10,690 nt of DNA from Bdellovibrionia bacterium (GCA_045805065.1 JBJMMA010000127.1:1-10690); one strand, 5' to 3'; positions 2,308 through 7,106 are shown, counted from the stretch's first letter. The notes: generated by a model from the sequence alone, not told the origin. Numbers and translations: made by a program.

Positions 2308-3984
2308 CTAATTACCCAAGGCCTCAGAGAGCACTCTTCCCTCCGAAAGACTTGGCGCAACCGTTCCCGTTAAAAACGAGAGAGTCGGCGCAAGGTCGAT
2401 CACTTGCGCGTTCGTGGAGTAGACTCCCGTCTTGAAAAACCTACCCGTCAGGACCAGCGGCACGGTGCGGTCGTAGGTGTAGCTTGTCATATGAGTCACA
2501 TTATCCCCTGCCACCATATAATAAGGCTTAGGAATGGTAATGACGTCGCCACTGCGTCCATCAAAGTAGGTATGCAGAATCTGGCGCTCAAACATTCCAG
2601 GTGGCAGATGTCTTTGATGGTAATCGGATCGCGTAAAGACATGAGCGATCCAAGGCTCTTTGGAGAGCTCATCCTTCATCTCAGCTTCCACATCCGCGGC
2701 CTTGGCCCCACGATCGGCCAACGCACGTGGATCAATGGAGAAGTTGAACTCCCATCCAAATCCAATCCACTTGAGGCCCTTGGGTTTTCCAAATTTGTGA
2801 TTGAGTCTCTCTTCCAGGCGGGAAAGGATCGTAGCCTGATCGACCTTCCCCGCATCAATCCGACGTGCACGCGCCCAATCCGGTTGAGGTGGAATTCCGT
2901 GATCCGCAGTGAGTACGATCGCCACATCGGCAAGACCGCCTGGAACCTGTTTCTTCAAGTCGTTCAGGACGTCAGATACGACATGATCATCCGCCACAGT
3001 CATCTCTTCCATCTCACGGCTGTTGGGACCGAAACGGTGTCCCGCATAATCATGGCTTGAGAAGCTGATGGCCAGAACATCCGTTGCAGTGCCACGACCG
3101 AGCTTCATTTCACGCACGGCGCGAGATACGGTTTTTGCGGTGAGCTCTAGTCCATAGGGAGTTGCCAGCGCTTCCAGCTCACCCACTTTGGTGTGATGAG
3201 GAAACTGGGACGGGGCCTTGGCTTCGGCTCCTTCTTGAGTAAAACCTGTTCCCTTGCCGGTATAAGTCCAATTGAGCTCTTTTCCACGCTCCTGATCCAG
3301 GCTTGCGTTCAAATCATTGACCCACGTGGGAAGTTTTCCATCCGGTAGATAGAATTTACTGGAGACCCAGTGATACGATTCCTTATCCACCCAAAGCGCG
3401 ATATCCGCTCGATGTCCGCCCATGAAAATCGCCGCGCGGTCTTTCAGCGCGATCGAGACGACTTTGGATGGAAAGCCCGCATTCTTGAGCTCATCACCCA
3501 CCGTCGTTGCGATCATGTTCTTAGGTGACGTGCCCACATAGGGATCCTTGGGATGAGCGCCAACGGTCTCAACGCTTGAATCCTGAGCACAATACATCCG
3601 GTCATGCGTCGTACGATCGTACCAATCGTTGATCGGAATCCCTGCCTGATAAGGATAGGAGCCTGAGAGAATCGTCGCATGCCCGGGACCTGTCATGGAT
3701 TGCAGGATATCGTATTGCGCAAACGGGAAGTACGCGCCATGCGAGATGAGCCATCGGAATCCGCCCAGTTTTCCATCCTTCTGGACTGCTGGCAAAAAAC
3801 GGGACTGGAAGCGCGTGAGATAATCCGCTCTGAACTGGTCAAACACCATCACAACGATCAAGCGTGGCGGCTTCTTGACCAGCGACACGGAAGAAGCCGA
3901 GGCTGAAGAAGATCTTGGAGCAGCAGCAACGGCAATCGTGGATTGAACAAAAACCAGATAAAGCGCGATCCATTTTTTCATCAT
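2308..3984 (-). CDS. Secreted/periplasmic alkaline phosphatase, PafA/PhoK type (AP/NPP superfamily)
   Basis: Signal peptide MMKKWIALYLVFVQSTIAVAA; VVMVFDQFRADYL; TGPGHATILSG (Thr nucleophile as in PafA); SIALKDRAA; SFSSHDYAGHRFGPNS; LTADHG; H...YTYDRTVPL. Start set at ATG 3984 (or 3981) after an AGGA, rather than 4035. Confidence 0.9.
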   Translation of the reverse strand: MMKKWIALYLVFVQSTIAVAAAPRSSSASASSVSLVKKPPRLIVVMVFDQFRADYLTRFQSRFLPAVQKDGKLGGFRWLISHGAYFPFAQYDILQSMTGPGHATILSGSYPYQAGIPINDWYDRTTHDRMYCAQDSSVETVGAHPKDPYVGTSPKNMIATTVGDELKNAGFPSKVVSIALKDRAAIFMGGHRADIALWVDKESYHWVSSKFYLPDGKLPTWVNDLNASLDQERGKELNWTYTGKGTGFTQEGAEAKAPSQFPHHTKVGELEALATPYGLELTAKTVSRAVREMKLGRGTATDVLAISFSSHDYAGHRFGPNSREMEEMTVADDHVVSDVLNDLKKQVPGGLADVAIVLTADHGIPPQPDWARARRIDAGKVDQATILSRLEERLNHKFGKPKGLKWIGFGWEFNFSIDPRALADRGAKAADVEAEMKDELSKEPWIAHVFTRSDYHQRHLPPGMFERQILHTYFDGRSGDVITIPKPYYMVAGDNVTHMTSYTYDRTVPLVLTGRFFKTGVYSTNAQVIDLAPTLSFLTGTVAPSLSEGRVLSEALGN

Positions 3985-5777: not shown

Positions 5778-6308
5778 TCAGGTCGAGAACGAAGCATATT
5801 TTTTTGGAAACTCATCGAGCCATCGAACCAGGACATCGCGCCCCAGGACATCATGGATATACTCGTAGACCGGGCGAAGCTCAGTCATCCTCTGTGCGCG
5901 AAAACCCGAAGGATCCCGCTCCTGGGCATCCGCTGCGGCCTGTTTCTGGGCTCGAGTCATGGGATAGTGATGAATGAAAAATCCGAAATGGCGGTGACAG
6001 AAGTCTGAATAGTCTTTGGTAAAGAGCAAAAACGTATGCCACATCAGATCGATGACCATCGCCTCGCTCGCAAGCGGTAGATGAGCAAAAGCGACACGGC
6101 CCTGATCGAACTCATGCTTTCGATGAGCGCAAAACCAAAGCCAGCGCTTGGTTTCGAGAAAAATTTCTTCGGCTTGAGCGATCGAGATGCCACTCGGGCC
6201 GGCAAGGTGTCCAAAGTCCTCTATAAAACGATGAGTCACCTCATCGGACCACTCTCCCCGATCAGCAAGGACTTGCTCGAGAGGAGCAAGTCTGGAGGCA
6301 GAGCTCAA
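5778..6308 (-). CDS. 'Glycine-rich domain-containing' (DUF1399/GRDP-like, TIGR04222-related) protein lacking the Gly/Cys-rich tail; putative metalloenzyme
   Basis: Motifs E(T)KRWLW and IDLMWHTFLLFTKDYSDFCHRHFGFFIHHYP match the vD.xWH.xiL.T..Y..FC...fG.xiHH.P signature of this family. Start is TTG 6308, overlapping the upstream TGA as TTGA, or ATG 6323. Confidence 0.75.
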   Translation of the reverse strand: MSSASRLAPLEQVLADRGEWSDEVTHRFIEDFGHLAGPSGISIAQAEEIFLETKRWLWFCAHRKHEFDQGRVAFAHLPLASEAMVIDLMWHTFLLFTKDYSDFCHRHFGFFIHHYPMTRAQKQAAADAQERDPSGFRAQRMTELRPVYEYIHDVLGRDVLVRWLDEFPKKYASFST

Positions 6309-6454
6309 TGTCCGCCCTTGCATCCGTCACAGCATCTTGCGCTCAAAAGAGATTGATCGAGCAAGCGCTGAATGAGCTCATCACGAGTTTCAGATTGAGC
6401 TTGAGACGCAGAGTCATGTAAATTTGGCGAATTTTGATAGGTATTTTGGTTCAT
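6305..6454 (-). CDS. 49-aa small peptide with C-terminal Cys-rich core (putative RiPP precursor or metal-binding peptide): MNQNTYQNSPNLHDSASQAQSETRDELIQRLLDQSLLSARCCDGCKGGH
   Basis: Fills the whole gap between the GRDP-like gene and the divergent PLD gene. Its stop overlaps the next start (TTGA). An extended -10 TGTTATCAT lies 8 nt upstream of ATG 6454. Alternative start ATG 6517 (70 aa) follows AAGGAG. Confidence 0.6.
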   Translation of the reverse strand: MNQNTYQNSPNLHDSASQAQSETRDELIQRLLDQSLLSARCCDGCKGGH

Positions 6455-6485
6455 GATAGAGGATGATAACAAAAGTTGGTCTTCA

Positions 6486-7106
6486 ATGAAATCACTCTTA
6501 TTGATTCTGCGTCTCATCACTCTCCTTATCACTCTCCTTATCACTTCAGGGCTCCTCTGGTCACCACCTGCTGATGCGCGATCGCGTCATCGCAAAAATT
6601 CTGCAGCACAAGAATTAGTCGACCAGGCGCTTCAAAAAGTAGATGAGGCCATGGTGTCTCCTCCTCAGGATCAGGAGACTTGTTTCTCGCCCGAAGAGCC
6701 CTGCGCCGTTAAGCTACGCAAATTCATCGCCTCGGCTCGTCAGTCCGTTGACATGGCCATTTATGACATCAACGAAGAGTCCATTGTTCACGAGCTTTTG
6801 ACCCAATCCAAAAAGATCCAGGTGCGGATCGTCGTGGACCGCAAGCAGGCCAAAGGAAATCATTCGAGCGTCCCGATGCTTATCAAGGCCGGTGCTCAAG
6901 TGCGCTTCGGAAGGCAGCGCGGCATCATGCATAACAAGTTCACAATCGTGGATGGGAAAATGGTTCAGCTCGGGTCGTTCAATTACACGCATCATGCGTC
7001 CAAGGCCAATAACGAAAACCAAATCTATTTGGCCAATCCTAAAATCGTCGAACGTTTTCAAAAGCGCTTCGAAAAGCTTTGGTCAAAAGCAGACCCGGCA
7101 GAGTAA
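6486..7106 (+). CDS. Secreted phospholipase D-family, single-HKD Nuc/Zucchini-like endonuclease
   Basis: Signal peptide (MKSLLLILRLITLLITLLITSGLLWSPPADA), FSPE, SARQSVDMAIY, and MHNKFTIVDGKMVQLGSFNYT...NNEN = HxK(x4)D(x6)GSxN in one copy only. Start ATG 6486 (6453 possible). Confidence 0.88.
   Translation: MKSLLLILRLITLLITLLITSGLLWSPPADARSRHRKNSAAQELVDQALQKVDEAMVSPPQDQETCFSPEEPCAVKLRKFIASARQSVDMAIYDINEESIVHELLTQSKKIQVRIVVDRKQAKGNHSSVPMLIKAGAQVRFGRQRGIMHNKFTIVDGKMVQLGSFNYTHHASKANNENQIYLANPKIVERFQKRFEKLWSKADPAE
6516..6545 (+). repeat. 12-bp tandem repeat ATCACTCTCCTT x2.5 (degenerate copy at 6491-6502)
   Basis: Exact copies at 6516-6527 and 6528-6539, partial at 6540-6545. Encodes ITLL-ITLL-IT in the PLD signal peptide. 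Confidence 0.9.

Follow-up and report, generated by a model that had tools for sequence, protein, structure and literature searches.

Two overlapping genes on the minus strand of a bacterial contig, at positions 5778..6454 of the 10,690-base stretch analysed here (the window), are read, with moderate confidence, as a translationally coupled peptide–protein cassette. It would belong to a widespread, undescribed kind that resembles systems for peptides that are made on the ribosome and modified after translation (RiPPs), and in it a leader would guide a probably metal-dependent modification of a cysteine pair. The window is one entire contig of a Bdellovibrionia genome (GCA_045805065.1 JBJMMA010000127.1:1-10690; 4.2 Mb in 262 contigs), and, among the named entries of the genome collection, an uncultured Bacteriovoracaceae bacterium is its closest relative. 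The first gene encodes a 49-residue peptide with a Cys-rich end and the second a protein of the PF27765 (UCP032817-like) family, numbered throughout in its 176-residue form. The pair looks like an undescribed peptide-maturation system because the same pair recurs across many bacterial phyla. The evidence consists of the conservation and layout of the peptide, the family and predicted fold of the protein, and models of the two together.

The peptide gene and its genomic association

Relatives of the window PF27765 protein are encoded at 80 genome loci, and a tblastn search of the peptide against these loci returned matching frames adjoining the PF27765 gene. An iterated peptide profile gave 50 matches with E<0.01 in 46 of the 80, all on the same strand and at most 1.5 kb from the gene; the only two further matches were tandem peptides on the same strand, lying further upstream in locus L061. 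None of the 16,194 open reading frames (ORFs) of a reversed-sequence control matched. The profile was then applied unchanged to 80 metagenome loci, which had been fetched later and were not part of its training, and here it found 37 peptides, all on the same strand, in 30 loci, compared with none among the 8,669 ORFs of the reversed control. The independent metagenome count is smaller than 30 of 80 because some loci duplicate genome loci (L091 is identical to L006, and L087 nearly so to L005) or each other (L094 with L095, L111 with L112). The metagenome scan gave no relative closer than 47%. Cys-rich small ORFs beside homologues, proposed as a check in a preliminary description of this DNA, were thus recovered in both sets. 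A looser pattern retrieved a further 16 of the 34 genome loci lacking a profile match, the control values being 1 and 2; less than 350 nt of upstream DNA is available at six of the 34.

In the window's own genome, the profile matched this ORF alone among 132,254 six-frame ORFs (E 7e-7; next best E 0.075). Comparison with L002, the nearest relative for which DNA was available and whose partner protein is 72% identical, revealed ten synonymous and two conservative changes in the final 29 codons of the peptide (hand count), which is poorly conserved ahead of the leader. Scans of the window peptide with Pfam, NCBIfam and PADLOC gave no match, and an NCBIfam scan of 23 further peptides returned sub-threshold noise only. 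By its conservation, the small ORF, which is present together with the overlapping next gene as first described, is a real gene.

The C-terminus of the peptide reads ...RDELIQRLLDQSLLSARCCDGCKGGH, and its three cysteines all fall within the final nine residues (CCDGCKGGH), as had been noted at the outset. An alignment of 35 peptides yielded the common pattern [K/R]-x-x-L-I-x-x-L-[LIM]-x-K, in which K/R24 is nearly invariant, together with two invariant cysteines, C41 and C42 in the window. The wider set of 88 peptides was reduced to 75 non-redundant ones by dropping duplicates and two peptides without a recognisable motif. The first cysteine lies 16–24 residues beyond the leader lysine in 74 of these 75, with a mode of 17; at least two cysteines are present in 72, and the first two are adjacent in 35 and 1–3 residues apart in 32. 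The stretch between the first cysteine and the C-terminus spans 2 to 53 residues and is variable in sequence. Peptides of the window's clade have cores of the form ...ELD[FY]KCCG..., and one of them stops directly after CCG; those of Bacteroidota carry double-glycine-like leaders with KGG directly ahead of CC. Two to four tandem peptide genes accompany one protein gene in L051, L076, L080 and L111/L112. The products are short, with a conserved leader and a variable core, and are encoded beside a protein gene, which is a precursor layout; judged from the alignments, the fixed leader-to-Cys distance, variable tails, tandem genes and double-glycine leaders are typical of precursor peptides. Of note, the four tandem genes of L111/L112 surround a single PF27765 gene, from ~600 nt upstream to 300 nt downstream, and their leaders are nearly identical while their Cys cores differ.

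The two reading frames of the window meet in a TTGA, which joins the stop of the peptide gene to an in-frame TTG of the PF27765 gene. This overlap (6308-6305), already pointed out in the preliminary description, was verified, and P0001, the closest database homologue (89% identical), starts where the window TTG aligns. Initiation at this TTG (6308-6306) gives a protein of 176 residues, and initiation at ATG 6323 one of 181 residues, both ending at 5778. Among the upstream peptide matches of the genome loci, the nearest have their stops between 34 nt inside and 42 nt ahead of where the protein match begins, others being further away. These nearest distances (-34 to +42 nt) and the window TTGA fit translational coupling, which the overlap suggests for the two genes. 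The peptide frame stays open upstream as far as GTG 6544 (79 residues), so that the peptide start is not certain, and no clear Shine-Dalgarno sequence was seen ahead of ATG 6454.

Fused forms of the pair were also encountered. By our own reading, 13 of the 204 family proteins inspected bear a C-terminal extension in which a linker leads to a leader-like helix and then to an end rich in cysteine, often C-G-x-Y-C-[ST]-C. Relatives with a fused tail of this type had been mentioned in the preliminary description, along with the proposal that the window supplies its Cys segment in trans; a separate adjacent peptide gene is indeed the form found in the window and in most other loci. The fused order is domain then peptide, and the split order is mostly peptide then domain. 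Other PF27765 proteins are fused to TauD-type, S-adenosylmethionine (SAM)-methyltransferase (own reading) or glycosyltransferase-like regions (P0140, P0177, P0180, P0111, P0131). The one such fusion that was Pfam-scanned, L042:1588-3369, contains a glycosyltransferase of family 4, and a leader-plus-Cys peptide ORF is located just upstream of its gene.

Neighbours were counted by clustering the ORFs of the 80 genome loci and scanning one representative per cluster with Pfam. C39-peptidase/ABC transporters occur in 12 of the 80 loci and HlyD proteins in nine; methyltransferases are found in seven and P450 enzymes in six, mostly from Pseudoalteromonas. An ATP-grasp-like protein (weak MvdD-type match) and a weakly SPASM-like protein are present in six Bacteroidota loci, TauD in four loci and S9 peptidases in five. 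In terms of gene neighbourhood, the peptide–PF27765 pair is the constant part of otherwise varied RiPP-like clusters. In L018 (Candidatus Uabimicrobium amorphum), the peptide (2772-2915, plus strand) contains a long run of C-x3-C repeats, and the cluster comes directly after a heavy-metal P-type ATPase (1-2148) and before an ABC transporter and a DUF1854 protein, a context that hints at a metal-related role.

The window's own clade comprises 21 loci, with named relatives in Bdellovibrionota and Myxococcota. Across these loci, no third gene is shared except a histidine kinase in four, no leader protease or exporter is conserved, and the next ORF lies on the opposite strand in 17. Within this clade the pair is, by gene order, a stand-alone two-gene unit, which bears out the minimal two-gene system initially envisaged.

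The PF27765 protein and the predicted complex

All 55 homologues retrieved from a collection of 5.8 billion proteins carry precomputed PF27765, and the protein atlas contains the exact window sequence, with a structure match strong enough for the name UCP032817-like (Pfam 38.1). Assigned in this way from its homologues, the window protein belongs to PF27765; the membership is indirect, through the PF27765.1 precomputed for homologues of at most 89% identity and through the atlas name, and scans of the window protein itself with Pfam, NCBIfam and PADLOC gave no match. A profile of 53 diverse members retrieved 7,499 representatives at E<=0.001 (50%-identity level), of which 2,016 are at E<=1e-10, and most representatives are stand-alone proteins of about 150-230 residues. 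Residues F50, D87, W90, H91, F93, Y100, C104, H114, G156 and W163 are invariant in the 53 sequences, and H113 and P116 nearly so. The signature first read as WH...Y..FC...HH.P was confirmed in the window protein as DLMWHTFLLFTKDYSDFCHRHFGFFIHHYP, and its D, W, H, Y, C and H residues are invariant in the 53 aligned relatives.

The AlphaFold2 model of the window protein consists of eight helices, with a predicted local distance difference test (pLDDT) value of 94.8 and a predicted template modelling (pTM) score of 0.90. In the PDB, Foldseek listed nothing at E<=0.001, its best match having E 1.0; of the 48,161 chains aligned exhaustively with VIA-align, none reached a Z of 5 and the best had 4.3; and a sequence profile search of the PDB returned one spurious match (E 0.47). 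The searches of solved structures therefore revealed no matching fold for the model, and a missing match is no proof of a new fold.

In the preliminary description, the protein was labelled GRDP/DUF1399-like, after the plant glycine-rich domain proteins of PF07173; the label proved correct for a remote homology and not for family membership. The PF07173 model (gathering cut-off 22.7 bits) had no match to the window protein at E<=0.1 and none in the window's own genome plus 40 relatives, in five other PF27765-carrying genomes or in 151 genomes of another phylum; a single one of the 53 aligned relatives was matched, with E 0.22. Only four of 301 Pseudomonadota genomes contained matches, in four proteins, of which three pass the cut-off. 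All four proteins match the 53-member family profile (E 1e-16 to 1e-9), and hhalign aligned the 53-member alignment with them at a probability of 98.4% (E 7.6e-15) over 88 columns. The two groups have the motif D-x2-W-H...T...Y...C...G...H-H-x-P in common, and some atlas clusters carry both PF07173 and PF27765. As inferred from these profile comparisons, PF27765 and the GRDP-like/DUF1399 proteins are related as members of a superfamily. Two of the Pseudomonadota proteins have conspicuous C-terminal tails: in L173:1390-2112 (plus strand), the domain is followed by hydrophobic segments and then a Gly/Cys-rich end, and in L170:1369-2268 (plus strand) by ~14 tandem 11-residue repeats. These tails resemble fused substrate segments and may extend the idea of a peptide tail to the whole superfamily.

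TIGR04222, which had also been put forward as a relative, was rejected. The window protein has no match to it or to any other NCBIfam model at E<=1, and where three PF27765-carrying genomes do contain TIGR04222 matches, these are at other positions; the one inspected, in L082, is a membrane protein without the WH...HHxP motif.

Complexes of the window peptide with the window protein were modelled with an interface score (ipSAE) of 0.85 (runs 0.86, 0.85 and 0.83), compared with 0.03 for the best of three controls. As many as 116 of 157 solved complexes but only 2 of 215 mismatched pairs attain this ipSAE mark, counts that are only rough with user-supplied alignments such as those employed here. 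The runs agree in at least 75% of contacts, with a partner pLDDT of at least 59. The lowest-error contacts are those of leader residues R24, L27, I28, L31 and L32 with protein residues 137-165. Peptide residues 34-45 (C41, C42 and C45 included) contact protein residues 60, 76-84, 87 and 113-117, among them the invariant Asp87 and the His113-His114-x-Pro116 motif. Modelling of the complex, another of the checks proposed beforehand, thus placed the Cys region beside Asp87 and His113/His114. In the model of a natural fusion, P0069, the leader helix has a pLDDT of 92-93, the linker 67-75 and the Cys end 42-63. On the strength of these models, the PF27765 protein very probably binds the peptide leader, and a fit of the leader-to-Cys distance to the spacing between the predicted binding groove and the conserved motif is supported.

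Proposed mechanism, competing explanations and known systems

In the maturation scheme that we favour, the 49-residue product would be of the precursor type, with a variable N-terminus, an amphipathic leader helix of the form [K/R]xxLIxxLL, a Cys pair ~17 residues further on and a short variable tail. The C-terminal helices of the PF27765 protein are predicted to clamp the leader helix, which would hold the Cys pair against the invariant cluster of Asp87, His91 and His113-114, with Cys104 and Tyr100 close in sequence. The Asp/His/His cluster, together with Cys104 and Tyr100 on a neighbouring helix, may bind a metal, and this site would modify the Cys pair; an oxidative change, such as a disulfide, a heterocycle or a cross-link, is the favoured possibility. 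No exporter, protease or further enzyme is attached in the window's clade, and the product there probably stays in the cell; it might be, for example, a small peptide that binds metal or has a redox role. Other phyla have the pair as the shared centre of clusters in which exporters and tailoring enzymes are added.

Several observations weigh against this scheme. At 18 of the 80 genome loci, no peptide was detected by profile or looser pattern, five of these having less than 300 nt of upstream DNA. In L002 (1796-1948, plus strand), the peptide frame is conserved, but ATA occupies the position of the window ATG, and no ATG, GTG or TTG precedes the leader helix; this ATA may reflect an uncommon start codon, a mistake in the assembly or decay of the gene. 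No RNA run carrying the window stretch was listed. The Pfam scan of the window detected no protease, peptide-cluster transporter or second enzyme beside the pair, in keeping with the preliminary description, and the peptide therefore need not be processed at all. With regard to the models, the Cys core is of low confidence, with a partner pLDDT of about 60 in the complex and 42-63 in the fused tail, and Cys104 and Tyr100 are absent from the list of confident contacts. Finally, the fusions of PF27765 to TauD, methyltransferase and glycosyltransferase regions fit a leader-binding adaptor equally well.

The strongest competing explanation, which we regard as rather improbable, is a two-chain metalloprotein. 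The peptide would be a permanent small subunit, that is, a split-off C-terminal tail, and its Cys pair would complete a metal or iron-sulfur site with Asp87, His91, His114 and Cys104; the pair would then function as a redox or metal sensor, store or chaperone, with no product matured or released. The fused single-chain forms would suit such an arrangement, as would the tightness of the predicted complex, the absence of a protease, exporter or tailoring gene from the window's clade, the heavy-metal P-type ATPase adjoining L018 and the histidine kinase encoded next, in the same orientation, in the window, L002 and L016. A permanent subunit is harder to reconcile with several different tandem peptide genes for one protein gene, with hypervariable sequence beyond the Cys pair and with the variable tailoring enzymes attached. 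The GG-ended leaders and C39-ABC/HlyD exporters of other family loci also argue for maturation, and the fused order of domain and peptide is the reverse of the prevailing split order.

Slightly less probable still is that PF27765 is a non-catalytic adaptor, a functional analogue of the RiPP recognition element (RRE), which would bind the leader and present the peptide to enzymes encoded elsewhere. The varied enzymes adjoining the PF27765 gene, the enzyme-like regions fused to the domain and the fact that the best-defined model contacts are those of the leader are all in line with this role. Helix binding alone, however, does not require invariant Asp, His, His, Cys and Tyr residues, and the same motif is kept in GRDP-like relatives with different tails. 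Furthermore, a Cys pair at a fixed distance is the only invariant core feature of the peptides, and many loci have no other enzyme nearby. That the small ORF is a chance frame, or that both ORFs are one frameshifted gene, is very improbable despite the want of a clear ribosome-binding site ahead of ATG 6454 and the ATA at the aligned start in L002: the peptide is conserved with mostly synonymous change, its profile matches only beside the partner gene with controls at zero, and the window cannot be a broken fusion because natural fusions have the peptide C-terminal, not N-terminal, to the domain. The single frameshifted gene, which the preliminary description had named as a potential refutation, was rejected on the basis of this fusion order and of the synonymous change relative to L002.

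The proposed leader-guided maturation was compared with known systems. In PqqD-like RRE systems, RiPP maturation is guided by a leader and a recognition element. The window pair is similar in that its short precursor, which combines a conserved helical leader with a variable core, is predicted to be bound by the neighbouring protein, and C39 exporters accompany part of the PF27765 family; it differs in that no known RiPP enzyme family was detected in the window protein and in that recognition and a putative active site would share one 160-residue domain. No PqqD/RRE match to the window protein was obtained with Pfam or NCBIfam, the model consists of helices only, and no such domain was among the results of the fold searches, although a missing fold match is not exclusionary. 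In DUF692/MNIO systems (methanobactin MbnBC, TglHI, bufferins), a metal enzyme targets conserved cysteines of ribosomal peptides, and the products are often metal-binding. The likeness here is a ribosomal peptide with conserved cysteines, which are a putative target of a metal enzyme, and the difference is a PF27765 domain of other size and fold; the Pfam scan of those window ORFs of at least 90 residues that were taken for genes identified no DUF692 enzyme or partner subunit. In borosin-type systems, the enzyme bears its own substrate as a C-terminal tail. PF27765 likewise has both fused (domain, leader and core) and split forms, but it is not a methyltransferase, and the window peptide is encoded upstream, in trans. 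The GRDP-like/DUF1399 proteins share the core motif, and some members have low-complexity C-terminal tails (L173, L170); the window protein differs in falling below the PF07173 threshold. To our knowledge, GRDP-like/DUF1399 proteins have no known biochemical function.

Within the literature accessible to the search, outside of which lie the subscription journals, no work was found on PF27765, UCP032817 or PIRSF032817, nor any that ties the PF27765 family to adjacent or fused peptides or to RiPPs; the DUF1399 literature found in those sources is confined to genes of plants, fungi or animals. Neither the window protein nor the peptides are covered by a model in NCBIfam (June 2026). The leader-guided logic is that of known RiPP systems; for the enzyme family, the fold and the Cys-pair rule, the sources searched contained no precedent.

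PF27765 is a large family that spans many phyla, with no assigned function and no solved relative, and a leader-bearing Cys-pair peptide as its constant partner provides a concrete, testable candidate substrate. The pair may represent a new class of ribosomal natural products, and rules derived from known RiPP enzyme families are expected to miss such peptides. For the related DUF1399/GRDP domain of plants and fungi, it also gives a first clue to function. Cultivable carriers of PF27765 include Pseudoalteromonas luteoviolacea (DSM 6061) and Cystobacter fuscus.

A bolder extension, which we consider possible but doubtful, is that PF27765 and the GRDP-like/DUF1399 proteins constitute a single ancient superfamily of metalloenzymes that modify peptide tails and have a new fold, whose substrate is either fused or encoded next door, and that the Cys-pair peptides form a new RiPP class whose chemistry is also new. 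If this held, the fused substrates would comprise Cys-rich segments, Gly/Cys tails and tandem repeats, to which the glycine-rich tails of plant GRDPs might perhaps be added, and predatory bacteria like the present one would make an intracellular modified peptide, such as a cofactor, metallophore or redox signal, and not an exported antibiotic.

Layout of the window locus

The coordinates of the peptide and protein genes and of their functional segments are listed in Table 1.

Table 1. Features of the peptide–PF27765 pair in the window (positions counted from the first base of the contig).
Feature	Position	Strand	Basis and remarks
Precursor-like peptide gene, 49 residues from ATG 6454; stop 6307-6305	6305..6454	(-)	Putative start; conservation and profile match in own genome
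Leader helix, peptide residues 24-37 (RDELIQRLLDQSLL), motif [K/R]xxLIxxL[LIM]	6344..6385	(-)	35-peptide alignment; lowest-error model contacts
Cys core with the invariant pair C41 and C42, peptide residues 41-49 (CCDGCKGGH)	6308..6334	(-)	35-peptide alignment
TTGA overlap of the peptide stop TGA with the in-frame TTG of the PF27765 gene	6305..6308	(-)	Sequence reading; start of P0001
PF27765 (UCP032817-like) protein, all-alpha, eight helices	5778..6308 (or from 6323)	(-)	Homologues; AlphaFold2 model
Conserved motif D87-x2-W90-H91...Y100...C104...G109...H113-H114-x-P116	5961..6050	(-)	53-sequence alignment; putative metal or active site
C-terminal helices, residues 137-165, with conserved L155, G156 and W163	5814..5900	(-)	Model interface and conservation; predicted leader groove

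Downstream of the pair, the Pfam scan of the window identified a PAS/HisKA histidine kinase together with a type I phosphodiesterase; upstream are a PLD-like protein, which is divergent, a BrkB/YihY-type membrane protein and an HI0933-like flavoprotein. A promoter and terminator scan yielded nothing beyond the shuffled expectation. Four DNA runs provided only short, identical contigs of low depth, which are uninformative on variants or the start codon.

The divergent PLD-like gene (6453-7106, plus strand) matches PADLOC's DrmC-type PLD models, with a best E of 7e-11, and L002 has it in synteny. Two ATG codons are candidate starts of this gene: the first, at 6453, sits in one CATG with the peptide ATG (6454, minus strand), and from the second, at 6486, a signal-peptide-like stretch is encoded. 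A perfect 12-base direct repeat (GTGATAAGGAGA twice), located upstream of the peptide ORF at 6521-6544 on the minus strand, resembles a ribosome-binding site; it is probably coding sequence of the PLD-like gene, because the opposite strand encodes the LITLLITLLIT stretch in the hydrophobic N-terminus of that protein. At the left contig end (433-2305), a DTW-domain protein, a small helix-turn-helix (HTH) protein and a Bd3614-like deaminase-domain protein are encoded, which are unrelated to the pair.

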